Of a stretch of DNA of 64,000 bases, positions 389 through 55,700 are shown in pieces. The notes under the pieces were generated by a model. That model was not told the origin of the DNA. It did no database searches and saw only the letters and a program-made list of their open reading frames with translations. This DNA is from Dipteris shenzhenensis (taxonomy: Eukaryota). Every line of letters begins with the position of its first letter. The first letter of the stretch is position 1. Made by a program: the position numbers and the translations under genes. The DNA is taken from the NCBI GenBank assembly GCA_047967505.1, contig CM106538.1; one strand, written 5' to 3'.

Positions 389-1722
389 GATGAGGGGATG
401 CATATCACAATGGAAGAATGGGATTATGCTAGAGGATGCATTCAAAAGGTCGGTCTATAGAATGTTATGCATAAGTTAGGAGCTTTCAACAATTTAAATT
501 GCTTATTCAATTGATTTTGTCTTGGTGTAGTGTACTATGTTCAATGCTATATGGTGTGAGGGCAAGCATTTTCAAACACAACGGATTGATGATAAGAGAA
601 ACACACAAGATTATGGCATCATTGCTAGCTTTGAGGGAGCCAATGGAACCATGGATGATTATTGTGGCATAATCCGAGATATTACTAAGCTTGACTTTTA
701 GTGCTTCTTTGTGTATGTTTTGGAAGTCAAGTGGTTTAAGGACATGGTGGAAAGAGGCTCTAATGCAACAATCAAATGCCATGCAAGTGGCTTTGTAACT
801 ATTGACTCCACAAAGTTTTGGCAAAGCAAGAAGGACACACTAGTACCACCGCAACAATGTGAACATGTACTGTACATATATATAAAAATACTCACTTTTT
901 TATATTTGATACTTTCGATGCAAGGAAAATAACATGTTTGTATTTGTGTTTGAACTAGGTTGTCTATCAACCAATGGTGGATAATAATAGGTGGTGGCAT
1001 GTCATACCTATTTCACCACGTTCCAAAGTGATGTATAGTACATTTACTAATATGGAGCGGAGGATGATCATTGCCATGGAGGTGATGATGATCGTTATAG
1101 GAGAGAGGAGGATGATCATGAGATAGAAGATACAGATATTCAGGCCATTACCCATGAGATGAGCACAGTAGCACAAGTAGGAGTCGGCTGAATGTATTCA
1201 TAGATCTCCACATTTGTTTGGATATTGATGTAGATAGTTTGGCAAGGGTTAATCTCATTGAGGATGAGATCGAATTGTAGCCCATCATTTTCATCCAAAT
1301 TTCTTATGTATTAGCAAAACTATTTTATATATTGTCTCATTCTCCTCATCTCACTTAATTTTTATATATGTGTGTTTGGCAAAAAGCATATTATCGAGTG
1401 TGACACGTGCATAGCATTGATATTTTTTAAAAATTATGTGCTTTGGTAATCATGGGCAATGCTTGGAAAGCAGTGATGCACATTTATCAGCTTTTGCTGC
1501 AAAATTTCAAACTTTGCTGTGCGTTTATAAACGCGTCTAAATATGCATCTAATATACAATGTAGATGCACTATGAGATGCATTAATAACCACACTAATAG
1601 ATGCGTTAATAACTGTGCTAATAGACATGCCCATATTTTCATTAGTTCTATCTGTGCCTATAGACACGTCTGCTATTTTGCATATCTATCACGTGCATCT
1701 ATAGCTGCTTTGTCTTGCTGTG
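389..1722 (+). mobile_element. 3'-terminal remnant of the same CACTA-superfamily family as 34406-42409 (DUF4216-type exons, subterminal repeats, right TIR)
   Basis: Colinear with 40604-42409 (e.g. VLEVKWFKDMVERGSNATIKCHASGFVTIDSTKFWQ). Ends in TGTCTTGCTGTG at 1722 (reverse complement CACAGCAAGACAAAGC). Lacks the 41194-41618 insertion and has many CG>TG/CA changes. Confidence 0.9.
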
Positions 1723-24599: not shown

Positions 24600-24880
24600 T
24601 GACTGCTTCAAGTTGCCACCTGCAGGTACACATTCTCCGGCTCCTCTTCTTTGCCGAAATACTCAATCATTGCTGCTATTAACCTTGGCCAGCTTTAGCG
24701 AACGTCTTCAGCCTGCTTCTCATACCACACTTGAGCCAAACCCTCTAGAAATGTGGGAAGAACCAACAGCCATCTATCTTCAGTAAGAAAGTTGAGAGAA
24801 ACACAGCGGTGCTTGAAGGCCACAAGATACTCATTTGGATTTTCTTCAACCCATCCACAAAACATGGGAATGTCAGCCAT
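24600..24880 (-). pseudogene. Ty3/gypsy gag N-terminal (capsid) fragment, truncated at the minisatellite
   Basis: MADIPMFCGWVEENPNEYLVAFKHRC...LPTFLEGLAQVWYE...W..L...F matches the retrotransposon gag pattern F-x-G...P..(Y/F)L..F...L.G.A..W(Y/F). Confidence 0.8.
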
Positions 24881-30523: not shown

Positions 30524-31022
30524 TAATCTATGAACATTCATAATTTTGTATATAGAGAGAAAATTCAATGCAATACCTATAAAATAATCCATTGTAATTT
30601 AATTGTAGTTTAATGAAATTAAAACTATTGGCAACGATGAAGGATTTGTAGCTAATTTTTCCATAGATTATTAGAAATACACTACTACACACAGATCCTA
30701 TTGCGACGTTTACATACCGACGTTTAGCGTGCACGGGGTGCTAATCGTTGGTATGAAAAGTGCATCTCGTAAAGCGTCGCTATATAGCAACATTAGATAA
30801 ACGTCGCTATATAGCGACTATTACAAAAGTCGCTATATAGCAACACTGAGATACTATTTTATAGCGACGTTTTCCAGAGAGGTTTTTTACTCATATAGGC
30901 CTTATGACAAATTTTTTTTAATTTTCATACATGTTTGATCTCATAGAGAATAAAAATATGAGAGCATGTACATCAAGCCTTTGAAGCTCATATATTCATG
31001 TCCAAGTTTGAGATGAAAAAAA

Positions 31023-33280
31023 TCAATTAAGAGCATTTACATCAATTGTTTCATCTTGAGCCAAGTCTAAGGTGCCAAACAAGTCTATCTCCAACTCTAT
31101 ACTGAGTTGATCTCCTATATCATCATCGTACTCAAGCATCATACGTTCACCTAAAAGTACTTGATCATCTTCTTCAATAAAGTGTGGCAATTCTTGATGA
31201 TCGTTGTCTTCTTTCTCAATATCATGATCTCCATCTTCCTCCCGTGCGATGTCATTATGCGCATCTTCCTCTTGGCTCATATTGTGATCTCCATCTTCTT
31301 CGCTAGATTCATCAGGACAATTGGATCCGGCATTGGTAGTGGCATCTCCATATCCACATCTCTATCTTTAAAAATTTGCTTACTTCATGGTGCAACTTGG
31401 ATCATGTACCACCATCTTGGATCAGAACGATCCGGATGAAAAACCACCTATATTGAAGATGGGTGCCAAATGTCGTCAAATATATATATGAAATTATGCT
31501 CAAGTACATGTATCAATGGATCTTTAAAAACAAAAGCTTTGATTAATTAAATCATTAGTATGCACCTGCTCACAGTGCTCGGGAAGAACAAAAGTATCAC
31601 TTTCATGGGTCCAATGTTTGGTGGAGTCTGTTGCAAAGAAACCGCTACTATCTTTTCTCACTATCGCATGGGGACCGTTGTAAATAGTTCTACCATTTTA
31701 CATCAAGAATGAAAATACTAAATCATCTGAAATCAACTTCATAGATATCGCATATGGTTCCACAATAATCCAACTGTGAGGGCCGGAGAGAAGATTGGTA
31801 TCTGAAGCACTTGCTCGGCTATCTTGTGTGAAGTTAGCCATGACTCCACAATCATATGTGACTCTCTTTGAATCGATGCGTTCCATGCGAAAATGTCGTC
31901 CATATGACCATAATGCACTGTACTTTTTGTACTGTAAAAGAGCATCATTAAAACAATGAAGATGCATCTATTTTATAGCGTATATTGCCACAAATAATTA
32001 CTTAATTACATCAAGAGGTAAGAAACTTACATGCACCATACATCCAGTTGATAACTCTGTCTTGCGCCCGTTTATTGTCTCTCCATCGCGTTCGGCTTTA
32101 CGTAGAGCCAGTTGTAGCCAATCAAGTGACATGTGAGTGGGGAGAAGAGCTTGATCCCGTGGATATGGTTGCGATCACCTGTACATTACTCTGAATCTCG
32201 TCCTTGCATTTATTCTTTCTGCTTTGGCCACTTCATATCTCTCAATCCACTTCTGCATCTCAGGGCTATTGAGGATACAAAACTTATTGAATTTCTCCAT
32301 TTGCTCTTCGCTCATCTTTCTTTCAATCCCTTTTCCTTGAGGAACCTCACCAACGATGCGATCATCATCCTTGTTATGCTAAGCTTGTGGCATATCGGAT
32401 CCATGGATGCAAGAAACTCTGTGATATATACTAATGACTCTTGCACAAGCCATCCCTCTACCATGCTTGCTTCTGGTCTTGCTCTTTGTCTTACAAATCC
32501 CTTTAAAGTTTTCATAAACCGCTCGAGAAAAAACATCCATCAACTATGAATGGTACCTGCAATAGCCACCTCATCAACTGTGCACAAGCAAGTGGACTTG
32601 AGTTGTCATAATGCTCGAGGGAAAGTACTTCTCAAGCAAGCCTACGGCTTCGATGGATTCCACCCTAGCCTTCTCGATGCTCGATATGGAGATCTCTTTT
32701 TGAGATATCCACCTATTTCACATGTCCATGTAAGATATTTTCATAATCAGTCTATAGATTAATAAGCTTAAATTGAAGAAAATGCAATCAATGCGATTTG
32801 ATAGTAAGCATACCTCACAATACCACAGATCTTGAATATAGCATTTCTAACATCTTCTTGTAAGCACCCTTTTATTGTAATTGGGAGGATGAACTATCAA
32901 AGCAACAAAGAAGTCATGTCAACAATATAACATAATCGTAATTACGCTAATGCATCACGATTATCGTTACACTAATTCTACTTAGAATACCTGTAAGACC
33001 TTGTGCCAATCATGGGACTTGAGCCCACTAAGCTTATTGTCCTTTGAAAATGCTCCTTTCAAGCAACGCATGTACCCTATCAGTGTTTGAAAAGAGGCAA
33101 TGTCTGCCTTGATTGCTGCCTCCTCCCTCGTAGAGAGGATCCACGTTGCTTTCAGGAGGACAACTTTTCCCGAAGCAGGCTACTATTTGGGCACACTTGG
33201 TTGGTTCCAAAGACTCGAGAGGAGTGCGAGAAGACTTGCGTGCTATGAATAGGATGTCTCGTTTGTGGCCCCAAGTGCAT
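31023..33280 (-). pseudogene. CACTA transposase 3' half (DUF4218/DUF4216-type exons), decayed
   Basis: GLKSHDWHKVLQ (~33000), MFFLERFMKTLKGFVRQRARPEASMVEGWLVQESLVY, WSYGRHFRMERID and an acidic final exon, all homologous to 39399-41954. Confidence 0.9.
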
Positions 33281-33649: not shown

Positions 33650-34405
33650 ATGGGATCACGTCGCACATCTGACGAGTACGGACAGCCTCGTAGGAGGAGA
33701 GCTCACGATCTATATGCTCCAGAGGACTTTGATTCCTCTCCTTGAGGACTACCCCTAGCCGACTCCTCTCGGACCTAGCACTGCGACTACCCTTGGTCCG
33801 ACTCCTCTCGGATGTAGCACTGTGACTACCCCTCAGGGAACTCCTTTGCTAGCCGTGCATGGCTTTGTCGGGAGTCCCGACGAGTTTGTAGCACAGATGA
33901 GTGATGAGGAGGCAGCGAGATTCTTCTCTCTGCTATCTCAGAGGACCTCAGCAATTCCCTCCCCTACATCGATTGTTGGATGTACTGCCCAACCGTCCCC
34001 TCGTGCCCCTTCGACTGAGGGTAATCACCTACATGTGCCTCTCATAAGGGAAGGAAGAGCAGGAAGGGCAGCTTATGTTGTGCTGACTCGGGAGATGTAG
34101 ACGAGTCAGCACACTCACATTCCTATAAGTTTCCACTTGGTCCGGAGACACAGTATCAGTCAGGTCCCTTGCCCTCTCCTACTCCCACTGCTACTCCTCG
34201 CTCCGGAAGCGCTCGCACAGCTTCCACTCCTTCTGACTCTGCTACCATCAGTCCTCCTTACTCATCAAGGGATCTCTCCTATCAAATCACGGCTGTCGGA
34301 GAGATAATAGAAGATAGAAAGGGCAAAGCAGTGATGGCCACCATGAGGTGGTTGATGAGCCATCACTTCAAGAGCGGCATTGCTACCGATTGGCGGTATC
34401 AAGAT
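33650..34405 (+). pseudogene. Accessory (TnpA-position) gene of the outer CACTA element, split by the nested element; resumes at 42410-42516
   Basis: Joining across the GAT duplication gives YQITAVGEIIEDRKGKAVMATMRWLMSHHFKSGIATDWRYQDDQKKQAVINELKQKYPDPPNWEF, which aligns with YDITQTGGILMDARGKDVMAFM...VRSRYPNPPNRQF of the 35026-36500 gene. Confidence 0.8.
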
Positions 34406-35025
34406 CACAACAAGACAAAGCACCCATAGACGCGCGCACAGACGCATTTCATGAACTAAATAAAAAACTTACGGGCGCGTCTATTTGCGCGTCAGGAGAC
34501 CCGCGTCTATTAGCGCGTCTATATATCAAACTTACGCACGTATAGACGCGCTCATACACGCGTAAATAGACGCGCAAATAAACGATTTGATAGACGCACG
34601 TATAGACGCATATCGAATAGACAGACGCGAATATAAACGCGTTTGTAAATGCGCTGATAGACGCGCCTTTTTTTTTTTAAAATTTTACAGAATACTGTGT
34701 ATGTTGTGTATGCTATATAGTTACAACAATCCCATATCCACATTCTCTGTAATTCAATTCTTACAGCCAACCTCATTTTAATTACAATTCCAAATAAAAT
34801 ATTACAACTCCAAAACGCAATAAAATTGAAAGCTCAAAAAGTGCTTGTATATACATATAGCACGAAGCTAAGCCACGTCATGTGGCTCCAAGTACAAAAA
34901 ATAAGGAAGCTAAGCCATGTCATGTGGCTTCAAGTACAAAAAATAAGAGGAGTCTATATACAAGAGGCACGAAGCCAAGCCAATGGCTTTAAGTACAAAA
35001 AAGAATAGTAGCACTACTTCTACGA

Positions 35026-36500
35026 CTAATCCTCGCTGCCTTCCACGCTCCCTGATGCGCTGCCTTCCGCGCTCCCTTCTGCACCTCCTTCCTCGTCTTC
35101 CTCGTCGTCTTGTGCAGGGGCGCCCTGTAAACAAGGGACAACATATATCAATGTATGAAAAATCAAATCTTTACTTATAATTTTGGCATTATTTAATTAC
35201 TTTCAAATACCTGGGGGGCATGTCCAGTCGCTCGGGTATACTGCTCCTCAGTAATCAACCCGTCATCATAGAAGTGCCTCCATGTATCTCCTCTGCGATG
35301 GTGGCGGTGGTAGGCTGTCTCCACTGGAGTAGGGTATCTGCCCACGATCTCAAGTTGCATGACCGCGATACACTTTGTGGAGGGATTAGTACAAAGAAAC
35401 AACCAACCTCCTAATAAACTACATAAGCAATATAATTTGAGATCAATACTTACAAATTGGGCCTCCCATGATTCAACACCCCCTGCTCCAAAATGCGCAC
35501 TCCCATACTCCTCCATCTGGATCCTCCGTGCCTCCACGTGCTGCAGACTGGGCTCCTCCCTCGCTGACTTCATTGCCTTCTTCCACTCACGCTTCTGAGC
35601 GGTGTGGGGCGGGCCCCTTGGAGGTTGACCTGCCTCAAGTCTGGCAAGCTCGGCTAGTGCCTGCCTCTTAAGGGAAGATCTTTTATTGCTAAGTATCGTA
35701 ACAATCTTTGACTTGGCCCATTTATCTGTGAACTGGCGATTGGGGGGGTTAGGATACCTAGAGCGAACAGTAGCGAGGGTCTCATCAGCCAACCTCTTTG
35801 GGTGGTCTTTATAGTGGATAAAGCAATCTCTGTAATTGTTAGCAATTACAGAGCACATGAAGGCCATTACATCCTTCCCCCGCGCATCCATCAAGATGCC
35901 TCCTGTCTGGGTGATGTCATAATAAATCGTACCATCACCCAGAGGCACGTCTAAATCATCGGAATCATCATCCTCGGCCTCACCGCCACATGGCCCAAAG
36001 CACTGTGCCATGCATCCGCCACCGCTCTCCCTGCTACTACGCCTGCCACCCTGTCGTGTCGAGCTCATACGATGGCCACTCGTAGCTGGGGACTGCGCGG
36101 GACTACGCTAACCACTCGTAGCTGGAGAACCGAGTCTCGATGGCTGGGGAGTACGTCGACGGCTCGCTGAGGCAGAAGGACCTCCTGAAGGCATGGGGGA
36201 AGGGGCATAAGACGGGATGGCAGAAGGGACATAAGACGGCATGGGGGAAGGGGCATAAGACGGTACGGGGGAAGGGGCATAAGACGGGGCATAAGACGGC
36301 TGTGCGGACTCCGCTGGGGTGATCTCAGGCAATGTGGGGTGGCTCGGAGTCTGTACTGCCGACTCCTGGGGAGTGTTAAGGGTACCCGTCATGTACCCGT
36401 ATAACTCCGCAGGACTAGGAGGGTGCCCTAAAATATTATATAAATCCTTCCATATCGATTCACGCGGATCAGGTGAGCTAGAAGCACTTCCTCCCCACAT
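35026..36500 (-). pseudogene. Accessory gene of the CACAA element (Pro/Ser-rich SYAPSP repeats, helical domain, acidic tail); one premature stop
   Basis: ORFs 36108-36524 and 35193-36068 are in the same frame, separated by one TAG (36108-36110). ATG at 36500; GT donors at 35453 and 35210; AG acceptor at 35126-35125; last exon GAPAQDDEEDEEGG..SED* ends at 35026. The middle acceptor looks mutated (CAA). Confidence 0.75.
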
Positions 36501-36579
36501 GTTAAACTGGAAAAAAATAAACAAATCTATTACTTTGGGAGCTGAGAAGAAAGGGGGGACAAAAAAAAAGAGGCTCTGT

Positions 36580-37475
36580 CAGTTCGCGTCTATAGACCCG
36601 TCTAATCTGCGCGTCTATAAACGCATCTAACAGAGCATTTAATAGTTCAAGTAAAAGCGCGTTTATCACCGCGTCTAACAAACCGTCAAAACATCCGTCT
36701 AACAGTGCGTTAAAAAGCGCGTTTAACAGCCCGTCCAAACATCCGTCTAACATCGCGTCTAAAAGCGCGTCTAACAATTCGTTTAAACTTCCGTTTAATA
36801 GATCGTCTGTTTAGGCGTCTATATCCGCATCTGTGCATGTCTGTAGCAAGCCAGACGCACAAATAGACGCGCCTGTAGATGCGCGTTTAGACGCGCCCTT
36901 AGACGCCTGTATACACGCGCTCCGACAGTCGAGAATACTCAAAAGTGGAAAAGGACGTTTCGCCCGACAAAAGAACGTGTCGCTCATACCTAGATGCTAT
37001 GTTTCGTGGATGCAAAAAAGTACAAAACTGGAAAGAGCAAGCAAGAACAACTTCAAAAGGACTTACTTGGAAAAAGGTATGGAAAGATCTTTCTTTTCCA
37101 AACTTGTTTCTTCTCCTCCTCTTCTCCTTGTTTGTACTCCTCCTCTTCTTTAGGCTTGGAAGCAAGCTGTGTAGGTACGGTCCCTTTGTCTTGAGTGAAA
37201 GCTTGGAACTGTGTGTGTATGGGAGGCTCTCTCTTAAGCTTCGAATCTATAGAACTGCTAATAATGAAGGAAAAAAGCCGCTCGCGAAGTTTAAGTTGTT
37301 AAAAGAAAAGCAAAGCGAGCGGCGCGCCGAAAAGCAGGTTTAAAAGTCGCGGGTATAGTCGCGTCTATTAGCGCGTCTACAAGCGCGTTTAAATACACAG
37401 AGTAGACGGGCATTTAGACGCGCAGGTAGACGCGACAGTAGACGCGACGATAGCGGGCATTTAGACGCGACACAG
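36580..37475. promoter_or_regulatory. Putative bidirectional promoter region with clusters of AGACGCG/CGCGTCT motifs
   Basis: Lies between divergent ATGs (36500 on -, 37533 on +). The motif is clustered at 36580-36920 and 37350-37475, and in both subterminal arms (34425-34670, 42130-42390). Confidence 0.55.
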
Positions 37476-37532
37476 AGTTTTTAAGTTAAGCATTTGAAGA
37501 AGAGCAAATTTGGTGGGTTGTTTGTTTGTAGG

Positions 37533-40500
37533 ATGTCTCCATCTTCAACAAGCAGCTCCAGTGAGGATGAATCCCTCCGTATCCACCATCGCGAAATGTG
37601 GTTGGAGCAAAAAATCAAATGTCTGTGTGATCGATGTCGAGGAAACATGTATCATGCACACAGGATTACGCTCAATCATATCTCAAAGTATGGAAAATGG
37701 GATGTGACCGTAAACAGGGTAAGGATTTGTAAGTTAAGGTTGATTGAGATACCTATGGGTGTTCATATGTTTGAGTTATAATGATCCCGTTTTAATTTGA
37801 TACAGGATGCAGTGCCACACCCGCACATGTTACCCTATGCCCGTCGTGAGGAGGCGAAGCGTCGGCGATATGAGGTGGGATCTTCTGGAGGGACTGTTAC
37901 AGATGCATGGAGTGATGGTGATAGTAGCCCTCCACCATTACCTCATGAAGCCATGGAGGAGGAGGTGTTTGATGATATGGTGCGGGATTTATATGTCCAT
38001 CAAGGGAGGGATAATAGCATGGAGCAGGATGATCTTTTTACTGCAGCATCGACTCCATTGTTTGAGGGGTGCACATTCTCTGTTCTACGTGCCTCCCTTG
38101 AGTTACTAAACTTGCAAACCATCTATGGATGGAGCAATGCAAGTTTGAATGCATTACTCAAGTAAGCTTTAATTTAAAGTCGATTTTGCAAACATGATGA
38201 ATTATGCGCGTGGGTCAATTACTCGAATGCTTTTCCTCATTTATGGTCTTCACGTGCAGGCTATTGTGTAAAATGCTTCCAAAGGAGAATAAATTACCGA
38301 CCTCAAGAGATATGGCAAGGCAACATGTGACCTCTCTTGGAGGATTAGATTACAAGCGCATCCATGCATGTGTCAACGATTGCGTTTTGTTTCGTGGACT
38401 ACATAAGGATGCAAGAGAGTGTCCTACTTGTGGAGAGGCAAGATATAGAGCAGATCTCAAAACCTTGGACGTGCCTCGTAAGGTATTGCGACATTTTCCC
38501 ATAATCCCTCGCATCCAACATATGTTCAAGTGCAAATCTATTGCAGAGCTCATGTCATGGCATTCCTCCCATCGATCAACCGATGGCAAGTGGAGAACTC
38601 CCGCGGACTCTCCTGCGTGGAAGCATATTGAAGACACATGGCCAAGCTTCAAGGAAGAACCTAGGAGCTTGAGACTTGGATTGGGTATGGATGGTGTGAA
38701 CCCATTTGGTCTCAAAAGCACGTCTTACAGTGTATGGCCAGTGGTATTGGTGAATTACAATCTTCCACCCTCTATGGCTATTAAGAAAGGACATGTCATG
38801 CTGTCCCTTCTAATTCCAGGGAAACATAAAGTCAAAAACCCTGATGTTTATTTGGAGCCTTTGATTGATGAGCTAGAGATACTTTGGAGAGGTATCGAGG
38901 TGCATGATGTGAGCAGGCCTCCCTCGTCACGAGACTTCAACTGCAACGCAGTCTTGATGTGGACGATGCATGACTTCCCAGGCTATGGCAAGTGTTCAGG
39001 TAAGAATTGCATTTTTTAATTATGAATAGGCAAGGACGTGGCACCCTAAACCCACCTTCCACTCTTAATTGCATCTATTGTTTCAGGTCTCACTACATCG
39101 GGTTACCATGCATGTCCTGTTTGTGGTCCTTCACTAGTTGCCTCACGGGCAGACGCATTGAATAAGGTCATCTATGAGAATCACCATCGATTTCTCCCAC
39201 CTGATCATCCTAGATATGTTGCCCCTTGGAATGAAGTCCTCCCACAATCACTCACCGCGGGAGATTGGATGAGAATTTGGGATGGTTCCACGACTCCTCC
39301 ACCACTTGGCATGAGCCGGTAAGGATTTGTAACTATTGGCTGGAAGTAAAGATTGGCTATATTGGTTGAAAGTGAAGATTGCACGCTAACACTTTATTTT
39401 GTTTAGATACTCCATCTTTTATCGTTTACCATATTGGTCCCACCTCAAGATCAATCACCTGCTCGATCCCATGCATATCTTCAAGAATGTGGCATCTACC
39501 ATTTGGGAGCATTTGAATGGGACACGAGATTCGGCAGGCATAAGGGAGGATCTACGTACCACAGGGAGGATGCGTGAAGCTTGGCCTCAAGAGAGACCAA
39601 ATGGGCGTGTTTTTTTACCTTGTGCACCGTGGATGTTATCAAAGCTAGAGATGGCGACGGTGAAGCGTGCTATTACTACAATTCATACTCCCACTGGATG
39701 CATGAGGTGTTTGAAGGGAGCCTTTACAAAGAGCAAGAAAAGAGGTGTAGAGCAATTATATGGCTTGAAATCTCATGATTGGCACAAGATGCTCCAAGTA
39801 AGTATTTTATATGCATAATATCTTTTTCCTTTCAAATTTGTGAGTGAATAGCTATAAGCAACTAATCAACCACCTCCTCGCGGGTTCAGTTCATACTACC
39901 TACTAGCATTTCACGTAGTGCATCAAAGGACGTGAAAGATTGTATTTACAAGATGGGCGAGCTTGTGAGGTATGTGAGCTCAAAGGAAATAGATCCCACC
40001 ACGCTTGAGAATGCTCGAGTTATGTCAGTGGAGGCGGTTTGTTTAGTGGAGGAGACATTTCCACGTTCTATTCTCACAAGCCAACTACATCTCATAGTGC
40101 ATTTGCAGGTGGATGAGATTGCTATATGCGGTACTATACATGCATGATGGTTGTTCTTCCTCGAGCGCTTCATGAAGACCTTGAAGGGCTTCGTGAGACA
40201 AAATGCAAGACCCGAAGGTAGCATGGCCGAGGGTTGGTTGGTACAAGAGTCACTTGTATATATTTCTGAGTTTCTTGTTGATGTGGATAGCTCTCTCCCA
40301 CGACTATGGAGAGATGATGAAGACCTAAGGATGACCTCTATTGTGCCTCAAGGAAGAGGACGCAACAAAGTAATAGACACGGAGTTGCGTAATAGTATCA
40401 ACCTCTTTTGTGTGCTTAATAGTGATGTGATGAAAAGATGGGTGACAAGATACGAGGGTGCAAAGGCAAGAGGACAAGAAGAAAGGGCCCTCTTTCGTAC

Positions 40501-41954
40501 ACACCACCACGGATCTCGTGTGCCATACCCTCAGCGTCTAAGAGCACTTCCAAAGGATATTTATGTGGATTGGCTACTTGATGAAATGAAGAAAGCAGAG
40601 AAAGACGAGGGGATGCATATCACAATGGAAGAATGGGAGTATGCTAGGGGATGCATGAGCAAGGTCGGTATATAGAATGTTATGCATAAGTTAGGAGGTT
40701 TTTATAATTTAGATTGCTTATTTAATTGATTTTTTCTTGGTGTAGTGCACTATGTTCAATGCTATATGGTGTGAGGGCAAGCATTTTCGAACACAACGGA
40801 TTGATGATAAGAGAAACACACAAGATTGCGGCGTCATTGCTAGCTTTGAGGGAGCCAATGGAGTCATGGATGATTATTGTGGCATAATCCAAGATATCAT
40901 TATGCTTGACTTTCGACGCTTCTTTGTGTATGTTTTGGATGTAAAGTGGTTTAAGGACGTGGTGGAAAGAGGCCCTAATGCAACAATCAAACGCCATGCA
41001 AGTGGCTTTGTAACTATTGACTCCACAAAGTTTTGGCAAAGTAGGAAGGACACACTAATACTACCGCAACAATGTGAACAGGTACTGTGCACACACATAA
41101 AAATACTCGCTTTTAAATATTTGATGCAAGAAAAGTAACATGATTGTATTTGTGTTTGAATTAGGTTGTCTATCAACCAATGGTGGATAATAACTTCTTA
41201 TCCATTTGGTGGTCCAATCTGTTATCAAAGCATAGCACAACATCCCCCTCAGCAAAGTGTCTTTCCCATCCCTTGCGTATCTTAGCATCCAATCGGGCCT
41301 TTTGTCGATTCTTTTGGATCTCTGTTTGGTGTAGTGCAAGGTGTTGGATCTCATCTAACTTCTCAAGTTGTACCAATCTGGCCTCTACATGTTCATCTTC
41401 TGTCATCCTCTGTTCTTGTGCCAATCTCAAGGCCGGAATCTCTATCTCTAGTGGTAAAACTGCCTCAGTACCATACACCAACTCAAAAGGGGTGTGACCT
41501 GTAGATGTTTTATGAGTGATGTTGTAAGCCCACACGGCTTCAGTGACCTTCTGATCCCATTGGCTCTTGTTCCCTGCGGCCATTTTTCCTATGGTTTTAC
41601 AAAGGAGGCCATTGGTCCAATAGGTGGTGGCATGTCATACCTATTATGCCACGTTCCAAAGTGATGTATAGTACATTTACTAATATGGAGCATATGGAGG
41701 ATGATCATGCCCATGGACGTGATGATGATCGTGATACAAGAGAGGAGGATGATCATGAGATAGGAGATATAGATATTGAGGCCGGCATTACCCGTGAGAA
41801 CGAGCCTACCATTGGAGATCTTGATTTCGATGAGCACATGAGTGGCACAAGTAGTAGTGGGTTGAATGTATTTGTAGATCTAAACACTTGTTTGGATTTT
41901 GAAGTAGATAGTTTGGCAAGGGTTGATCTCATTGAGGATGAGATTGAACCGTAG
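37533..41954 (+). pseudogene. TnpD-type CACTA transposase (Transposase_21, DUF4218, DUF4216-like), multi-exon, nearly intact
   Basis: IHACVNDCVLF, CPTCGEARY, LGLGMDGVNPF, YNLPP, YLEPLIDEL, MHDFPGYG, LDPMHIFKNV, GLKSHDWH, FFLERFMKTLK. GT-AG introns between the ORF blocks. Lesions: TGA at 40145-40147 and the insertion at 41194-41618. Confidence 0.93.
41194..41618 (-). mobile_element. Isolated gypsy (Tat/Athila-like) integrase C-terminal fragment inserted in the transposase last exon
   Basis: WDQKVTEAVWAYNITHKTSTGHTPFELVYGTEAVLPLEIE...FAEGDVVL. The empty site GGATAATAATAGGTGG is visible in the paralogous copy at ~979-994. No LTRs. Confidence 0.9.
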
Positions 41955-43263
41955 CCCCACAATTGATATTGGCAAAACTATTTTACATATTGTCTCATTC
42001 TCCTCATTTCCCTTAATTCTTGTATATGTGGGCTTGCAAAAAATTATGTGCTTTGGTAATCATGGGCAATGTTTGGAAAGCAATGATGTACACCAAAATC
42101 TCACTTTCTGTATTCTCTGGATCGAATCTAACTCCGCGTCTAAATGCGCGTCTAAGTCTCAGTGTAAACGCGCAAATAAACGCGCAAATACACGCGCAAA
42201 TAGACGCGCTAATAGACGGGATGTTAGACAGGCCCGTATTTTCTCAGGTCTAACGCGCAAATAAACGCCGTTATTGACGCGGAAATAGACGAGCATTTAG
42301 CCGCGCTAATAGACGTGCCCGTAATTTCTCTACTAGAGCAACGCCTATAGACACGCTCGCTATTTTGCGCATCTACCAAGCGCGTCTATAGTTGCTTTGT
42401 GTTGTTGTGGATGACCAAAAGAAGCAGGCGGTCATCAATGAATTAAAACAAAAATATCCTGACCCGCCAAATTGGGAGTTTAATGAGGATTATATGCGAG
42501 AGCGCTTGCTGAAATGATTCTTTAACAAACTTTTGTCAGTCTTAGATGTTTGATATACTTATTCAAACACTTAGCATAAAATGTGACTTACAATGCAACC
42601 CATTAGGCTAACCACTCAAGTATGAATTCCTAAATCAATCTTGCTGAAATGATTCTTTAACAAACTTTTGTCAGTCTTAGTTGTTTGATATACTTTTTAT
42701 ACTCATTGAAATCGGTTTTATTTTCAGATATACTAGAGAAAGTGTCAAATTTGAGACTGCTTGGGTGAAAAATTGTATTATCATACATTTGTGAGCATTT
42801 TGTAATTACGTGTAATGGGTTTTTGTACTCCTTTTATTTTTATAAAATAGTCTTATGACTCTACCTTAAGCTCAAGATAGGGAATTGTCAAAGACACATT
42901 TACACCAAGTTGTTTTTTTTGCCAAAATATTAAAAGGACACTTTTATGTCCTGTTATGCTACCAAACTAGTGATAAAGTCCCTTTATTAGGTTGTTCTTA
43001 GAAAGCTTGATGTCGATGCAAATGAAGAGAGCATTATAAGGAGGTTAACCAAGCACAAGAGGTATTTGGAAACTCAAGTCAAACCCATAGAGTAATAAGC
43101 AATACCTCAATATGGGGAAGAGGGAGTACAAATAAGCACCCCTCCACCCCCCTCTTCCCCTTGCCCCGCCGCCCCCGGCGCTGGCTTTGTCAAATCCTAA
43201 CAACAATTGAAAGGAAAACATGAGTACACGACCCTAAAGCCTCTTGTCGTTGAACGGAGAAAA

Positions 43264-43341: not shown

Positions 43342-43669
43342 CTGGCGGGGGTGCTACGCCAGGCTTTTTCGGTCGCATCACGGTTGGCTGATACGCTACG
43401 ATTGCAATGAGTCAACAAAAGCAAAAGATCGTCGTCCAACATCCGCCAGCACAGGACGCCAAGATCGGCAACGACGGAGCTATCGAGGCAACAAGTCGTA
43501 AAAGATCGGCTTAGATGCTTGCTGTTGATCATCTTATCCTTATTCCTAATTATCTAACTTATCTGCTTCTTATATCTTCTTTTTAACCATTTCAATTCGT
43601 CGTCTTCTTCTTCGTGTAAGCTCTCTCTCGGCCTCCTCATCCGCTTCCCACCAGCTTGTCAATCCAGCT

Positions 43670-46600
43670 ATGGCGCCTCCTCCTCCTTTCTACTACCTCC
43701 TCCTCCTCTCCTTCTTCCTTTCCTTTGCTTCCTCCTCCCTCTCCTCTCCTTCATCCTCCCTCCCTCGCCGCCAAATGCTCTCCAATGGCTTGGGCCTCAC
43801 TCCTCAAATGGGGTATTTCTCCTCCCTTCCCATCTCCGTCCTGCTTTTTCCTGTCTTCTATTCCGTTGAGCGTCCATTACAACATGTGCCCGTCCCTTGG
43901 CATGCCTTTATAATCGATTTTGAGAACCAAACGCCTTTGCCTCTCCTCACATTTTTATTGCACCTGCAGATGGAATAGTTGGAACCACTTCGGTTGCCAA
44001 ATCGATGAGCAAATCATCCGCAATACTGGTACGTTTGCCTCCCTTCAGGACGTAAACGCAATTCTGGACGTTAAATAGAAGCTTTGTACATGGAAGTATA
44101 ATGAAATGACTCCGCGCCGTCGGAAAATATATCTTTTTGCTTGTTCACATTGCACCAAACTTATGTTGCGGCAGAAACCAAGTCCAGAATCGATTTACAA
44201 CTTCATCTTCGTCCCTGCATTCATTCGAATTGATGAATTCAATCTTTAGTTATGTTGAGACTCTGTATCTTACTAGATGGTCGATTACAAGCGCATCCTT
44301 TTACGTGTTATGCTTGCAGCCGACGCGATGGTTTCAACAGGGCTGGCTGCACTAGGGTACAAGTACGTGAACATAGGTAAGCTGCTTGACTGCGATTCTA
44401 CACTGTCGATTGTGTCGAAATGTTTTAGTATATCCAGAATGCACGGAATCACAAAATACATTTCTGCATTTCGGGTCACCGGTGCACGTTACGGATGCAT
44501 TTCATAATCTCTCAGCGTTCGACAGTTGTATAGAATTTATGGAGCATTGAGTTGTTATTGATCCTTTAACATTGAACAGATGATTGCTGGGCGGAACTGA
44601 GCCGTGACAGCCAGGTGAGTAACTCAATATTGCAGGTACGCGAGAAACTCAACCGAAAGTCTCGCCATAATTCTTCTCAAAACTTATTGCGAAACTTAAC
44701 GAATGGTCGCACAGGGTAATCTGCAAGCAAGACGTTCCACGTTCCCGTCTGGCATCAGCGCTCTTGCGGATTACGTGCACGCGAAAGGCTTAAAGCTAGG
44801 GATTTACTCGGACGCAGGGTCAGTTGCTAACTTTTTCCAAGTTTGTACTGTATCCATCTCCCCTATTCGCATTACGTGGAGTTCGGTGCATCACAGATTC
44901 ATGAAATCCGATTACGCATTGGTACAATGTGACTGAAGTCTGAACGAGATCGTTGTCTCTCAGATAATTTATCGATTTGATCTCGCGAGACTGATATTGC
45001 GTTAATTCCGCAGCTACAAAACTTGTCAAGGCCAACCTGCTTCGCTTGGGCATGAACAACAGGACGCCGCAACGTTTGCTTCTTGGGTACGTCGGTCCTG
45101 CTGTGCTGAGATTCTTAAATCTAACCTGCATTGCAATTTTAGACTATCGAGCTGAGCAAATGTTCCAAATTCGAATGTATGGTTTTTCGTTGCTTGTCTC
45201 ACGCGCGAAATGCGCAGGGAATCGACTATTTGAAGTACGATAATTGCAACAACGATGGATCATCGCCCGAAACGAGGTTGGCAGTCCCTGTCTTACGACA
45301 TTCTATTTTCCGGGGGGCGATGCCGATTACATGGCAAAGTCTTTGCTGTTACTTTTCTCATTCTGCTCCTTGCAGGTACCCGGTAATGCGAGATGCCCTG
45401 TTGAGCACCCAGCGTCCCATCTTTTTCTCCCTCTGCGAGTGGTGAGCACTGAGTCTGAAACGTCCCGCCCCGCTTATATTTTTTAATCAGACGAGCCGTG
45501 CACGCGGAGTTTTGACAATGTATCCGTGGATTTTACCCCTGTCCCCTTTTGTTGATACCAGGGGACAAGACAATCCAGCCACCTGGGCTCCCAAAGTCGG
45601 AAACAGCTGGAGAACCACTGGCGATATCAGCGACAATTGGGCAAGGTGAACGGAATCCATGGTTAAAAATTGTCACCGGTCCGTTAGCCCAAACTTATAC
45701 CATGGTTGTGTGGATATGGCAGTATGACATCCCGAGCCGATTTCAACAATGTCTGGGCTTCGTATGCCGGGCCTGGCGGATGGAACGGTGATGTCCGGAC
45801 TCCGAACACTTTCTTGCCGAAGCATCAGCTTTTTCTTTCGCGTCGGCAAGAGAAATATTTTTCATCATGTCCAGCTAACAATCAATCCGGCTTCTGCAGA
45901 CCCGGACATGCTAGAGGTGGGAAACGGAGGCATGACGACGGAAGAATACCGGTCGCACTTCAGCATATGGGCAATAATGAAGGTTTCCAGACTACTCTCA
46001 GCTCGTTTTCGCTTTCGATTGATCGCATTTGTGCTAGCTAGATGCTCTCATGGGGCAATCAAATATGTATGCCAATGCTTCTAACACGTAGTCGCTTGGT
46101 TGTGTGTCTCATTCAGGCTCCGCTTCTCATCGGTTGTGATGTTACAAACATCGGAAGCGACAATCTCGCGATATTAAGCAATCCCGAGGTTATTTCTGTG
46201 AACCAAGGTCAGTAGTTATATTAGGCAAATCTCGACGTCTTTGAGGGATAGTTTGCAGATGATCTAGGAGGTTTGCTGATCAAATGCTTGGGTTCCTCAA
46301 TGTGTTAAAAACACAGATTCACTAGGAGTGCAGGGAAAGAAGGTAAATCAGAACGGAAATCTGGAGGTAAGCCGTAACCGATACTATGTGCCTAGAATAT
46401 GTCGTTTCAAATAATTCTCATTTGCCGGAAGCTGGCTACCACAAATAATGCGAGAGGACGTGAATTGTGGCAAATTTACAGGTATGGTCTGCGCCATTAT
46501 CAGGGAACAGGGTAGTGGCAGTATTGTGGAATCGTGGAGATTCACCGTCTGTGATCACGGTCCAGTGGTCGGACATGGGTCTAGCGTCCTCGGCAGTGGT

Positions 46601-46862
46601 ACAAGTTCGCGATTTGTGGGAGGTAAGATCCACGCTTTGGGCTCATTTCAACGGAGGGCATTGTAGTGGTTCACCAGAGAATTCCCGTCTGCACCACAGT
46701 AGCCTTTCTGCTTAAACGCGCCATCAGATTAACTCATGTGTCGTGATAAGCATTTGCGTTTTCTTGCAGGAACAAGATTTGTCGACGAGCTATCAGGGCT
46801 GCTTGAGCGCGCAAGTAGGAGCACACAGCGTCAAGATGTTCATTCTCAAGCCCTCCAGCTAA
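43670..46862 (+). CDS. AGAL: Alpha-galactosidase, glycoside hydrolase family 27, secreted; 15 exons, 400 aa
   Basis: Exons 43670-43812, 43970-44028, 44320-44376, 44580-44614, 44715-44818, 45014-45086, 45218-45276, 45376-45441, 45562-45645, 45723-45787, 45900-45982, 46117-46207, 46317-46366, 46482-46622, 46770-46862. All introns GT-AG; total 1203 nt, open. Signal peptide, [40 protein letters not shown] (nucleophile), SWRTTGDI (acid/base), [25 protein letters not shown]. Confidence 0.97.
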
Positions 46863-48738: not shown

Positions 48739-48905
48739 TGATAAAATATGAAGAGGGGAGAGGAGAAGAGTGGAGATGAGGAGAGAGGGCATAGCTAGAG
48801 AGCACACCACAAATGACTAACTATACACTAGATTTAGTTGAAAATGTAGGACATATACTAACCCTTTTAGAGTTAGAGTTAGGGAATCTAACCCTTTCCT
48901 TTATA
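48739..48905 (-). mobile_element. Distal part of a copia 3' LTR (proximal part at 57033-57095), split by the Sola-like transposon
   Basis: Minus strand reads PPT TTGAGGGAAAG (57096-57106), then TGTTGAGAAACC...GC TATA [insertion] AAGGAAAGGG...CATATTTTATCA, about 230 bp when rejoined. Homologous to 21857-21974. Confidence 0.8.
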
Positions 48906-49029
48906 AATACGTATTTCATTAATTTTGGCCTGGTGCACTGTCCAAATTCGTTTTGTGAGATAATTTTGGATAAAACATTTAAAAAAAAGAGGCTCTTATA
49001 AAACAAAACATTGAGTCAAAAAGGAACCA

Positions 49030-52000
49030 TGTCTTTTTTACGGTTGTGCATGACACTAAGGCAAAAACGGTGTATAATGCGTGTTGCTTATGCAAAGCAT
49101 ATCCAATGGGAACAATACTTTGCATATGCCTCAACCTATGTGGTGTTGAGTTTCATGCAAAGTGACGTGCCCATGCCATAAGTACTTGTTCGAATAACAC
49201 ACCTAGGAATGCATTTTTGATGGTAGTGCATATCACAAGGATGAAAATGGTGTATACTGTGTAATTGACAATGCAAATCATATACGATGGACATAGTACT
49301 TTGAGCACACCTCAACCTAGGTAGTATTAACTTGTGTGCAAAGAGGTGCCCCCATCCGATAAGCACTTGTTCGAATAACACACCTAGGACCATGTTTTTT
49401 GACGGTTGTGCATGACACTGGGGCAAAAACAGTATTTAATGCTCCCTCGACCATGCAAAGCATATTCGATGGGCACAATACTTTGCATGCTCCTTCAAAG
49501 TGGGGGTATTGAGTTGTATGCAAAGTGATACACCCATACGATAAGCACTTGGTCGGATAACACACCTAAAAGTGTGTTTTTTAATAGTTGTGCATGACAC
49601 AAAGGCACAAACTATGTTTTATGCGTGATATACCATGCAGAGCATTTGCGATGGACACAGTACTTTGCATGTGCCTCAATCTAGGTGAAATTGACTTACA
49701 TGCAAAGTGGCGTGTCCATTCGATAAGTACTTGATCAGATAACATACCTAGCGATGTGCATGACGCTAAGGTAAAAATGGTATTTAATGCTCGATCGACC
49801 ATGCAAAGCATATTCAATGGACATAATACTTTGCATGTGCCTCAAATGTAGTGGTATTGAGTTGCATGCAAAGTGTTACTCCCATCCGATAAGCACTTGG
49901 TCAGATAACACACCTAAAAGCATGTTTTTTTAGGGTTGTGCATGACACTGAGGCACAAACGGTGTATAATGAATGATCAATATACCATCAAAACATATCC
50001 AATGGGCACAATACTTTGCACGTGCCTCAAAATAGGTGTTATTGAGCTGCATGTAAAGTGGTGTGTCCATCCGATAAGTACTTGATCGGATAACACACCC
50101 AGGAGCGTGTTTCATTACGAATGTGCTTCACTAAGGCAAAGACGGTATTTAATGCTCAATCGACCATGCAATGCATATCCGATGGGCTCAATACTTTACC
50201 TGCACCTCAACCTAGGTGGTATTGTCTTGTTTGCAAAGAGACACACCCATCCGATAAGTACTTGGTCATATAACACACCTAGCAGCGTGTTTTTTTACGG
50301 ATGTGCATAACGCTAGAGGAAAAACAGTGTATAATGCGTGATCGACCATGGAAAGCATATCTGATGGGAATAATACTTTGCAAACACCTCAAACTAGTTA
50401 AACTTGACTTGCGTTCAAAGTGGAGCCCCCATCCGATAAGTACGTTTGAATAACACCCCTAGGACCGTGTTTTTTTATGGTTGTGCATCACACTAAGGCA
50501 AAAACGGTATTTTATGCTTGATCGACAATGCAAAGCATATTATATGGACACAATACTTTGCACACACCTTAAACTAGGTGGAATTGACTTGCATGCAAAG
50601 TGGCATGCCCATCCCATTGGTACTTGTACAAATAACACATCTAGGAGCGTGTTTTTTTACGGTTGTGCATGACACTAAGGCAAAAACTGTGTATAATGCA
50701 TGATTGCCTATGCAAAGAATATCCGATTGGCACAATACTTTGCATATGCCTCAAACTATGTGGTGTTGAGTTTCATGCAAAGTGACGTGCCCATACCATA
50801 AGAACTTCTTCGGATAACATACCTAAGAGCGCATTTTTTAACCGTAGTGTGGTGTATAATGCGTGATTGACAATGCAAATCATATCAGATGGGCACAATA
50901 CTTTGTGCACAACTCAACCTAGGTGGTATTGACTTGTGTGCAAAGAGGTGCCCCCATCCGATAAGCACTTGTTTGAATAACACACCTAGGTTTGTGTTTT
51001 TTGACAGTTGTGCATGACACTAAGGCAAAAACGGTATTTAATGCTCCCTTGACCATGAAAAGAATATCCGATGGGCACAATACTTTTCATGGACCTCAAG
51101 AGAGGTGGTATTCATGAGTTTCATGCAAAGTGGTACACCCATCCAATAAGCACTTGGTCGGAAAACACACGTAAAAGCATGTTTTTTAATGGTTGTGCAT
51201 GATACTGAGGCACAAACGGTGTTAAATGCATGATATACCATGCAAAGCATATCCGATGTGCACAATACTTTGAACTCACCTCAACCTAGGTGTTATTGAG
51301 TTGCATGCAAAGTGGCATGTCCATCCAATTAGTACTTGATCGGATAACACACCTAGGACGGTGTTTTCTTACAAATATGCTTAACACTAAGGCAAAAACG
51401 GTATTTAATGTTCAATCAACCATGAAATGCATATTTTACGGCCACAATACTTTACATGCACCTCAACCTAGGTGGTATTGACTTGTTTGCAAAGAGGCAC
51501 ATCCATCCGATAAGTACTTGTTCGGATAACACACCAAAGAGCGTGTTTTTTTACGGATGTGCATAATACTAGGGGAAAAACGGGGTATAATGCGTGATCA
51601 ACCATGGAAAGCATATCCGATAGGCACAATAATTTGCATGCAACTCAACCTAGTTAAACTTGACTTGCATGCAAAGTGGATCCCCCATCCGATAAGTACT
51701 TGTTTGAATAACACCCCTAGAACCATGTTTTTTTATGGTTGTGCATCACACTAATGCAAAAACGGTGTTTTATGCTTGATCGACAATCCAAAGCATATCC
51801 GATGGGCACAATACTTTACACACACCTTTAAATTGGTGGAATAGACTTACATGCAAAGTGGCACTCTCATCCCATAATCACTTGTTCGAATAACACACGT
51901 AGGACTGTATTTTTTTACGGTTGTGCATGACACTAAGGCAAAAATGGTGTATAATGCATGATTGCCTATGCAAATCATATCTGGTGGGCACAATACTTTT

Positions 52001-52620
52001 CATATGACTCAACCTATGTGGTGTGAAGTTTCATGCAAAATGATGCGCCCATACCATAAGTACTTGTTCGAATAACACACCTAGGAGCGCGTTTTTTGAC
52101 GGTAGTGCATATCATAAGGATAAAAATGGTGTATAATGCGTGATTGACAATGCAAATCATATCCGATGTGCACAATACTTTGATGCACCTCTACCTAGGT
52201 GGTATTGACTTGTGTGCAAAGAGGTTCCCCCATCTGATAAGCACTTCTTTAAATAACACACCTAGGACCGTGTTTTTTGACGGTTGTGCATGACACTAAG
52301 GCAAAAATGGTATTTAATGCTCCCTCGACCATGGCAAGCATATTTGATGGGCAGAATACTTTGCATGTGCCTCAAGAACGGTGGTATTGAGTTGCATGCA
52401 AAGTGGTACACCCATCTGATAAGTACTTGGTTGGATGACACACCTAAAAGCATGTTTTTTTATGGTTATGCATGACACTGAGGCACAAATGGTGTTTAGT
52501 GTGTGATATACTATGCAAAGCTTAGCCGATGGGCACAATAATTTGCACACACTTCAACCTAGGTGTTATTAAGTTGCATGCAAAGTGGCGTGTCCATCTG
52601 ATGAGTACTTGATCGGATAA
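49030..52620. repeat. Tandem satellite, ~20 monomers of ~181-182 bp, inside the left arm of the transposon
   Basis: GGTTGTGCATGACACTAAGGCAAAAACGG-like heads recur at about 49042, 49222, 49404, 49586, 49753, 49934, 50119, 50299, 50479, 50661, 50843, 51006, 51191, 51373, 51555, 51737, 51919, 52101, 52282 and 52463. Confidence 0.95.
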
Positions 52621-52727
52621 CTTCTCCCACCAATAAATTAAGTACTAATTAAAATTATGATAAATGAGTAGATTATTAAAAAGAGACTAATTAATATTTA
52701 TGTAATTGTTGCTACTGCAGAGCCTGC

Positions 52728-55700
52728 TTGCAAAGGACTCTCACAAAGGAGATGGCTATAGATTTTATTCCAGGGATGGATGTGATTTTATGTAGCAAAA
52801 GAGAAGTAGTTGCATTTGCTACAATCCATGATAGTGATCCCAATTCAGTTTGCCAATTTCGAAGACTTGGCAAAGATAAGGTGGCAGTTACTATATCAAA
52901 GATTCTTAGTGCACATGTTGAGCTAAAGTATAAATATGGAGATATGGAAACACTTGGAGATGTTATGCCCTACAATACATCCAACAAATCATTTATAGCA
53001 TGGGACAGAGACGAGACTTATGCAATAGACATTATCAAGAATACAAAGTGCACCACCTTGGATTTTACTATAGGGGACTTTTTACAAATGAGATCATTTG
53101 CAAATAAGAATGTAGCAGAAGGTGAAGTATTGGGATTTGAACAAGTGGAGGAATGGTCATTTGCACAGATGGGGATTCTAAAAGTCACTGATGATGGTAT
53201 GGTTGATAACATAACATCCTTATGTGATCCCTACTAGGAGGTAGGCAAGAATATGAGATGGAGCATGCAATTTTTAAACATGAGAAAGAGGCACATGGTT
53301 TCAATGATAAAGACAAGGTATACTACAATATCAAAGGACCTAAAAAGCATGCCCATGTGCCAAGCTCTATCACTTCAAACGTGGATGATTTCAATGTACT
53401 CAATTATAGAAGTGACATCTTATCTGGAGTGGATGAGTTCATCGGTTCTGAGAAACAAAAAGATTTTAGAAGTGAAGCCTTATCTGGGGTGGATGAATTC
53501 TTGCACAATGAGAAGGGCAAAGGTTTTAATAGCGATGTCTTGTCAAGTGTGGATGAGTTCATGCATATTAACAAACCCGGTTTCAATCAAGCTTGTGGAT
53601 TTGTGAAAGCCATGCAAGTTGTCCCAATGAGCGATGTTCTCTCAAGAGTGGAAGAGTTTCAAGGTTCTCAATACTCTTGTAGAATATTGAATTCATTGAA
53701 TGGTCCTAAGAGTATGTTAAAAACGAGGATGAGATTAATAGAGGATTATTTAGTATTTAACTTGATTGTGATATGGCCAAGGATGCAACAACCAATCATG
53801 GATGCTTGGTTACAAACAAATGTGAGGAGAAGAAGTGCATAAATACAAATAACAATGTGCACGAGGAATGAGAAGAGAAAGCAAATCCAGACAGATCCAC
53901 AAAAGCAACCAAAGACGAAGAGAGTAATGAAGGAGGAGAAAATGTTAAATGCATTGGGATATCTATGTTGCAAGCAAAGATGTATGCACTTTATTGATCT
54001 TGCAGACATCAAGGAATGTAGAGGACACGTGTGGCAAAGAAGAGGAAGCGAAAGAAATCAATACCTTCTCACAGGTCTCTCTTGCTTTCTTCAGAATGGC
54101 AATAAAAGGCTAAGTTCAAGACAAAAGGAAAAACCTCTCGTAAATGGAAAAAGATTTGCAATAAGGCATATCGCAATATTACTGGATTATCCCATGGTAC
54201 ATATTGGGATTTAGTCACCAAGGCAAAGGGCGGTAAAAAATTTAGCATTCATGGTAATAGAGGAAGGTCCAAATCAAGAATCTCAACTATTAGGGAAGTA
54301 GCAATTTTGCAAGACTTCATACATGAAAATGCTTTACCTCAACCCCATATATCTACCAAAATCCCTAACAGTGATGCGATCACTGAAATGCACCTTCCAA
54401 TGGGCTTGACAAAGCTCAAAGTATTTGACTCTATTGCAAAAAAGCAAAGGCAAAGAGGGGGCGCCGTGGCTTCTTCTCATACTTTGTATACTCTTTGGAA
54501 GAAAAACTTTGGATATGTTAAAATCCCAAAGAGGCAAAAAATGTCAAAGTGCAATGTCTGTGATGATTTAAAGTGAGCGATTGAGAGTGCAAGATATCCA
54601 AATCAAAGGGAATTATACAAAAAAAACTAAAAATCTCATCATGACCTTATTTGACATTCCAGACAAAAATATGCATTTTGGAAGGAGCAAGCTATTTCGG
54701 ATAACGATGACTACATGTGCCTTATTGTAGATGGCATGGATCAGAATACAACATTGCCTTGTTTCGTTGCCACTCCACCTAAATTATAAGGAAAGCACTT
54801 TCTAAAGACACATTTATGTGGAGTGTTAGTGCATGGAATTAAGTTTTTTGTAGATATATGGATTGATTCCTTACATCTACATTTGAGCAATCACGTTGTA
54901 ACATCTATTATGAAGGCAATTCGCAATGTACATGCAAAAAAAGGTTGCCTACCACCGACTTTGAGAATACAAGCTGAAAATTGTTGGCAAGAAAATAAGA
55001 ATGTACTCATGTTTGCATTCTGCTCAATGCTAGTTGCTCATCGAATCTTCAATGAGGTTGAATGTGGATTTTTGTATGTTGGGCATACACATGAGGATAT
55101 CAATCACGTCTTTAGCACAGTCTCAAGAGAGCTTAAATGCAAGGATGTGGAGACAATAGATGACTTGGTAAGAAGATGTGGGAGGCAAGTTGGAGGTCAT
55201 AAGGAAAGTACGGTATGTGAGAGGCTCAAAAGAATGTATGATTGGAAGAGCTTCATTCTACCTTTCATACAAACAGGTGGTGATGCATTGACAGGTCATA
55301 CCAATCCACACTACTTTCATTTTTTTTAAAAAGATGAAAGACTCGTAATGCAATGGAAATAGTATTCTCATGATACAAAATGGGAACTAAAGAACCTTAC
55401 AATCTCTTAACTTCAATTCCCAACAAGGAAAGGTATCCAACATGGGCTCCTATAAAAGAATTCAATGAGAGGTCTAATTGTGAAATAGAAGGACTAAAAG
55501 CATTTATTACATACAAAGAGGAAATGCTCCAGAGATATCCTGATTCGAAGCCTACTTGGAGAGAACACACTACCACTGTAATTAACAAGACACGAAAATT
55601 AATAAAGGACCTTGAGAGAATGTGAGGCTCAAAGGATGTCAAGGAAGAATGCAATATATTTTGGCCAAATGTTCATAACGATTTGCGCCCAGCTCTAATT

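Follow-up and report, generated by a model that had tools for sequence, protein, structure and literature searches.

A decayed EnSpm/CACTA element with a TnpD-type transposase gene and a probable TnpA-like gene in head-to-head arrangement

We analysed a 64,000-nucleotide stretch of DNA (contig CM106538.1 of assembly GCA_047967505.1; hereafter the window) and focused on a transposable element at positions 34406 to 42409. The element has matching terminal inverted repeats (TIRs), a target-site duplication (TSD) 3 bp long, a TnpD-type transposase gene on the + strand, an accessory gene (the helper) on the - strand, and four blocks of one 12-bp repeat. The explanation that we favour, and regard as somewhat probable, is that this copy, now decayed, belongs to an EnSpm/CACTA family of high copy number in which TnpD and a distant TnpA-like helper lie back to back and share a central promoter region. 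The original prediction, made from the letters of the sequence, had described a complete CACTA-superfamily element with CACAA ends and a head-to-head two-gene layout. The TIRs, the TSD and the two genes with their strands are present as predicted, whereas the copy is not intact (see below).

The left end begins CACAACAAGACAAAGC and the opposite strand at 42409 reads CACAACAACACAAAGC. The two 30-bp TIRs match at 27 of 30 bases, and a simple binomial estimate gives about 0.0005 TIR pairs this good per 64-kb window. The insertion lies within the accessory gene of an older, outer CACTA element. Excision of the element and one GAT restores a continuous frame in that gene, which independently supports the GAT duplication. 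When that gene was compared with the accessory-family profile, its parts to the left and right of the insertion both matched (E 7e-11 and 2e-5), and the two matches adjoin along the profile. The duplication (GAT/GAT) has the 3-bp length typical of EnSpm/CACTA. The strict CACTA..TAGTG ends asked for in PMC4158355 are absent: both ends read CACAA, and a sister copy in the window ends with CACAG at 1722, as had been predicted. Both pentamers fit the broader plant consensus CMCWR, quoted in PMC3227409 citing Feschotte 2008, and the looser CAC..GTG, which PMC12730594 uses together with 3-bp duplications to file elements as EnSpm. When the right TIR is compared over its first 17 bases, 15 match in the sister, 14 in the related metagenome contig L001 (described below) and 12 in the outer element, so CACAA, CACAG and CACTA grade into one another within one lineage. 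We therefore rejected CACAA as a lineage marker, which the original prediction had taken it to be: it falls inside CMCWR, and L001, a relative with a CACTA end, shares 14 of the 17 TIR bases. Our literature search found no paper joining CACAA with CACTA terms; the literal pentamer may be unreported and is in any case a minor variant.

The repeat blocks share the motif core TAGACGCG, which was chosen from the same sequence and counted with one mismatch tolerated. The element holds 55 copies, compared with a mean of 3.2 and a maximum of 8 in 100 shuffles and with 7 copies in the other 55.8 kb of the window. Four blocks contain 52 of the 55, each with a period of 12; three copies fall in gene bodies and none in the 400-bp central core. 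The outermost blocks (12 and 14 copies) correspond to the subterminal repeats of 10-20 bp in both orientations that characterize EnSpm/CACTA, and the internal blocks flank the core. Within the core there is a single strong splice donor per strand (37066 on -, 37175 on +), the two being 109 bp apart, and acceptor-like sites lie directly ahead of each start codon. Judging from these sites, each gene probably has an intron in its 5' untranslated region (UTR) that encloses one repeat block, and we infer that the starts of both genes lie close together, near 37070-37175.

The + strand gene was correctly predicted to be of the TnpD type. Single exons match the Pfam families Transposase_21 (E 1e-48; 165.8 bits against a cut-off of 28.6) and DUF4218 (E 4e-10; 39.9 bits against a cut-off of 27), and Transposase_21 (Tnp2) with DUF4218 is the combination expected of EnSpm/CACTA. 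Transpos_assoc reached 17.9 bits, below its cut-off of 27.7, and exon 7 alone had no DUF4216 match. EnSpm/CACTA transposases carry C(2)C and H(3-4)H motifs ahead of the last catalytic E (PMC12730594); in our gene model CPVC lies at 437 and HLIVH shortly ahead of FFLERF at 724. The two last TnpD introns (40661-40744 and 41079-41163, both GT..AG) are spliced out in contigs of run X14 at a depth of 365-381. This run is RNA by guess only and consists of contigs rather than raw reads, so strand and start sites are not readable from it. Since its contigs skip two GT..AG introns, related TnpD copies appear to be transcribed and spliced on the + strand.

Among the 120 matches listed of 917 relatives of TnpD exon 3, the closest with an organism name are five Adiantum nelumboides proteins (P0005, P0007, P0008, P0010 and P0012; 56-63% identical), followed by two from Riccia sorocarpa (52-54%) and then by flowering plants (41-50%). 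We built a tree from the window TnpD and 50 rows hand-picked from these 120, 32 with an organism name and 18 without. With support of 100/99 the window TnpD grouped with the five Adiantum proteins and five further rows, and none of the 25 angiosperm rows fell in this group. From this placement, which concerns the transposase alone, the element probably comes from a seed-free land plant, likely a fern. The predicted distinct lineage thus stands as a transposase clade apart from the sampled flowering-plant rows, although CACAA ends are not its mark. Searches for loci of TnpD or the helper in viral contigs gave none, and the loci search of prokaryote genomes likewise gave none.

The helper runs on the - strand from 36500 to 35026, in agreement with the original prediction, and our model of it has three exons (~428 codons) encoding a Pro/Ser-rich start, a conserved core and an acidic tail. 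A word-indexed search found two relatives of the core, and HMMER found 29 (E<=1e-3, 1.84 billion proteins), one of them a spurious bacterial match. AlphaFold modelled the core with confidence as three helices (mean pLDDT 87.5; first bundle >90). Foldseek returned no match at E<=0.001, and the best VIA-align matches (Z 5.5 and 6.5) are unrelated helical proteins. For one relative, P0147, Atlas features place the ten best named matches together with Transposase_24 in a single family or clan (score 0.85); by Atlas structure, five of ten rows carry Transposase_24 (TM 0.47-0.48). Both scores are at the level of a lead. The P0147 model contains two three-helix groups ~55 residues apart, the second at pLDDT 47-80, which we liken to the TnpA domain, described as two tandem three-helix motifs ~45 residues apart (bioRxiv 10.64898/2026.08.24.746577). 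These comparisons of sequences and models suggest that the helper is quite likely of TnpA ancestry.

Several results weigh against this ancestry or against the helper model. The window helper matched no Pfam family, and Transposase_24 (PF03004/PF03017) was matched by 0 of 27 aligned members. In Atlas the window's own core stayed below 0.9 and returned no row of Transposase_24. P0147 shares only 27% identity with that core (E 2e-5), and BLASTP left window exon 2 unaligned with P0147. No spliced helper transcript is found among the 15 joints listed of 115, and RNA-labelled contigs extend across the helper introns too. An alternative, which we consider unlikely, accepts the layout as correct and family-wide but gives the two genes separate promoters, or derives the helper from a source other than TnpA (for example a captured BEN- or Myb-like gene), with a mechanism unlike that of Spm. 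The lack of a Pfam or clear fold match fits this alternative, as do weak look-alikes among BEN, SANT and trihelix proteins (Z 3.7-4.4) and the ~1 kb between the two start codons; it is opposed by the Atlas features and structure for P0147, both of which lead to Transposase_24 clusters, and by the closely spaced single donors in the core. The helper profile found nothing at E<=1 among 8000 longer candidates of 784-2235 residues, which is weak evidence, and nothing among the 120 TnpD matches.

In described plant Spm layouts one strand encodes both proteins, whereas here the genes lie on opposite strands in both the inner element and the outer one. Between the TnpD stop and a TIR there are 455 bp in the inner element and 342 bp in the outer, and the sister's 3' end is alike, so there is no helper gene downstream of TnpD. 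The outer element, whose TnpD pieces are 30-52% identical and which has another repeat motif, represents a separate family with the same strand relation; one X14 contig begins at 30680, exactly the outer CACTA end. The prediction that it shares the divergent layout holds for the strands, TnpD on - and accessory gene on +; the element is nevertheless a ruin that has lost its centre. It lacks TnpD residues 1-522 and contains an inversion of 100 bp, and a search of the window at <=5 mismatches in 21 bases gave no second TIR for it. With its middle deleted and this piece inverted, the outer element is supporting rather than clean evidence. Elsewhere in the window, a fourth TnpD 3' fragment (4480-5184) has 71% DNA identity to that of the outer element, and no TIR was recognised after it.

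The metagenome contigs L001 and L002 represent one locus and share with the element the helper family (39% identity), the boundary between exons 1 and 2, subterminal repeats with a 12-bp period and a helper whose 3' end faces the TIR. From 375 to 3942, L001 contains a broken helper, ~2.3 kb of simple-repeat-rich DNA, then the repeats of 12-bp period and finally the CACTA terminus. It differs from the element in this CACTA end, and no transposase was found on the 4.5-kb contig.

The head-to-head order could instead be a rearrangement peculiar to these copies, in which the helper was flipped between flanking inverted repeat blocks or two element halves were fused. The helper is indeed flanked by blocks of mainly opposite sense (34427-34670 mainly +, 36585-36830 mainly -), the depth of other copies in run X4 drops to 96 at 36424-37007, and the outer element has an inversion and a deletion at its junction. 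Two further results tell against the explanation that we favour: we found no second intact element, and no listed contig spans both genes. Against a rearrangement, both genes lie within a single TIR pair and a single target duplication, the same strand relation recurs in two unrelated families, and the L001 helper also faces its TIR. The outer inversion is only ~100 bp, because it is bounded by TnpD residues 566 and 569, which adjoin. We regard a rearrangement here as improbable and retain a back-to-back gene pair as a probable family feature.

A mechanism can be proposed for this pair. Both genes would start within the 400-bp central core, and the 5' UTR intron of each would hold a block of the CpG-rich motif that also lines the ends. 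In Spm, TnpA attaches to the motif clusters of the ends, recruits demethylases of the host and switches on transcription (bioRxiv 10.64898/2026.08.24.746577), and it has been modelled in complex with TnpD (PMC13547354); by analogy, the helper may bind all four blocks. At the end blocks it would assemble the transpososome, loading the transposase; at the internal blocks it would control the shared promoter, activating or damping it as TnpA does for Spm. Because the helper would control a shared promoter, both proteins would rise and fall together. A broader idea, which we put forward tentatively and with more doubt than confidence, is that seed-free plants hold a whole EnSpm/CACTA branch with a free-standing TnpA-type regulator back to back with the transposase, one short bidirectional promoter, and arrays of binding sites in both first introns and at the ends. 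If so, the origin of TnpA would predate flowering plants, and the two gene layouts described so far would be joined by a third that carries its own feedback switch.

The element resembles maize En/Spm and Arabidopsis ATENSPM3/7 in having a Transposase_21 transposase, a 3-bp duplication, short TIRs, clustered subterminal repeats and a helper. In those elements one gene yields TnpA and TnpD by alternative splicing (PMC13547354), unlike the two opposite-strand genes, CACAA ends and internal repeat blocks around a core seen here. The original comparison with maize En/Spm was too narrow, as Arabidopsis ATENSPM2, 5, 6 and 9 already provide examples of TnpA and TnpD as separate genes in head-to-tail order (PMC13547354; bioRxiv 10.64898/2026.08.24.746577). 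Those elements likewise encode the helper separately; our element differs from them in its head-to-head order, in a helper beyond the reach of the Transposase_24 Pfam models, and in a transposase from a fern-containing clade. Two 2026 studies trace TnpA to the transposase, first through alternative splicing and then through a split of the gene, and both confine TnpA-like proteins to flowering plants (PMC13547354; bioRxiv 10.64898/2026.08.24.746577). We conclude that this is not a new transposon superfamily but a genuine EnSpm/CACTA element, departing only from the strict CACTA-end and same-strand features.

Previously described families with this layout would have spoken against the original prediction, and our full-text literature search, which ran outside Repbase, Dfam, TREP and subscription papers, found no description of the head-to-head layout. 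The term 'head-to-head' is absent from the three text supplements of PMC13547354 (figures were outside the search), and 'fern', 'opposite' and 'head-to-head' are absent from the main text of bioRxiv 10.64898/2026.08.24.746577, whose supplements may bear on layout. The accessible parts of PMC8978399, PMC8195511, PMC1636069 and PMC4158355 contain no opposite-strand layout. It is still conceivable, though we think it rather unlikely, that everything is as described but already catalogued, for example as a fern or lycophyte EnSpm consensus in Repbase or TREP. That NCBI already holds the Adiantum proteins fits such a catalogued family; the literature search speaks against it, as does a survey of 962 Repbase Spm proteins in which TnpA-like proteins are apparently confined to flowering plants (bioRxiv 10.64898/2026.08.24.746577). 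The points of interest are the head-to-head order of the two genes, the motif blocks inside the element and the probable TnpA-like gene outside flowering plants, each known from few copies or from a lead. If correct, an opposite-strand TnpA-like gene in a fern-type element would date the gene split earlier, with a later inversion into a shared promoter. CpG-rich arrays at the ends and beside the promoter would allow a direct test of a transposon regulator's methylation escape outside angiosperms. TIR finders requiring CACTA/CACTG ends would overlook this apparently high-copy family.

The original prediction called the element complete, with few lesions, which our gene models contradict. In TnpD, a TGA at 40145-40147 (codon 721, Arg in relatives) lies just ahead of the conserved FFLERF. 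We take the acidic triad to be D325, D419 and E727, with this stop upstream of that E. The helper has an in-frame TAG at 36110-36108 (codon 131), and a 427-bp foreign insert interrupts the last TnpD exon. We therefore rejected an intact, potentially autonomous copy; neither full protein is encoded, so movement would be possible only in trans. The insert is absent from the sister and is skipped in contigs of X1, X4 and X14 (three of four runs). To judge by a motif, its open frame is presumably akin to a retrotransposon integrase tail, and neither Pfam nor PDB gave a match for that label. Its joins show 2-3-base shared ends with no duplication, and it looks like break-repair filler; the insert itself is repeated (X4 depth 213 at 41329). 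There are also 3-base extras at 40105 and 40502 that other copies lack, and a TnpD intron at ~39969/39970 has been lost, near-exactly and in frame, leaving donor-like bases. The outer element retains the matching intron at ~32810-32714. Around the lost intron, X4 contigs diverge at 39972-39975, and one X14 contig begins at 39969.

The age and copy number of the element were also considered. The element as a whole has an observed/expected CpG ratio of 0.81, against 0.17-0.44 in three background stretches; within it the ratio is 0.55 in TnpD and 1.9-2.4 in the end blocks. The predicted preservation of CpGs is thus real relative to background, but the excess is concentrated in the repeat blocks and the ratio in TnpD is lower. 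The nearest public contigs differ at 5/539, 17/1150 and 2/354 bases (about 0.6-1.5%), consistent with the predicted youth in the sense of a fairly recent copy, which may reasonably be described as fairly young but dead. Summed X4 depth is 1e4-3e5 on both genes versus 4-15 on the neighbouring host gene, and, although depth is no copy number, this suggests that both genes belong to a family of very large size.

Table 1. Coordinates of the element, its two genes and related copies in the window.
Feature	Position	Strand	Basis or remark
Sister, 3' fragment only	389..1722	+	ends CACAG; 78-90% identical; lacks the 427-bp insert
Outer older element	30680..33277	-	CACTA end 30680; own subterminal repeats; TnpD 3' half; inverted piece ~33179-33274
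Outer accessory gene, 5' part	33650..34405	+	resumes 42413-42514 past the insertion, then breaks off
Left TSD GAT	34403..34405		empty-site frame
Left TIR, begins CACAA	34406..34435	+	27/30 match with right TIR
Left subterminal block, 12-bp repeats	34427..34670		core TAGACGCG; 12 copies; autocorrelation 0.58 at 12 bp
Accessory exon 3	35026..35124	-	acidic tail and stop; GT..AG site model
Accessory exon 2	35211..35354	-	start 35348 or 35354, upstream acceptor reads AA; 43% identity to L001 exon, E 4e-11
Accessory exon 1	35454..36500	-	Pro/Ser-rich N-terminus with TAG at 36110-36108, then conserved helical core (35987-35455)
Internal repeat block A	36585..36920		17 copies; within putative 5' UTR intron of accessory gene (donor 37066, acceptor near 36506)
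Motif-free core	36941..37340		candidate shared promoter region; pyrimidine-rich tract 37090-37150; 0 motifs in 400 bp
Internal repeat block B	37356..37470		9 copies; within putative 5' UTR intron of TnpD (donor 37175, acceptor 37531)
TnpD-type transposase	37533..41954	+	~1125 codons, 8 exons; canonical GT..AG introns
TnpD exons	37533-37718, 37806-38161, 38260-38999, 39087-39318, 39407-39797, 39890-40663, 40746-41081, 41165-41191 plus 41619-41954	+	
Foreign insert, 427 bp	41192..41618	- (open frame)	last TnpD exon; presumably resembles C-terminal part of LTR-retrotransposon integrase
Right subterminal block, 12-bp repeats	42135..42389		14 copies; autocorrelation 0.59
Right TIR, CACAA reading inward	42380..42409	-	27/30 match with left TIR
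Right TSD GAT	42410..42412		flanks right end

The window contains further features. The neighbouring host gene (43650-46860) is alpha-galactosidase-like (Melibiase_2, E 1e-4, one exon) and has 12 GT..AG joints in X13 and X14 contigs; its observed/expected CpG ratio is 0.98, so it carries no sign of methylation decay. At 48902-57032, a 30-nt inverted pair at 90% identity encloses a 182-bp tandem array (~49030-52640) and broken open reading frames at 52695-55329 (Pfam DUF7869, E 1e-46); this is a probable second kind of DNA transposon. Inverted copies of one repeat, 68-87% identical in pieces, occupy 18451-19946 and 58383-63987. Leucine-rich-repeat coding fragments lie on the - strand at 3144-4279, a 13-bp tandem array at 23961-24800, and a 39/67-bp compound array at 59880-60630.

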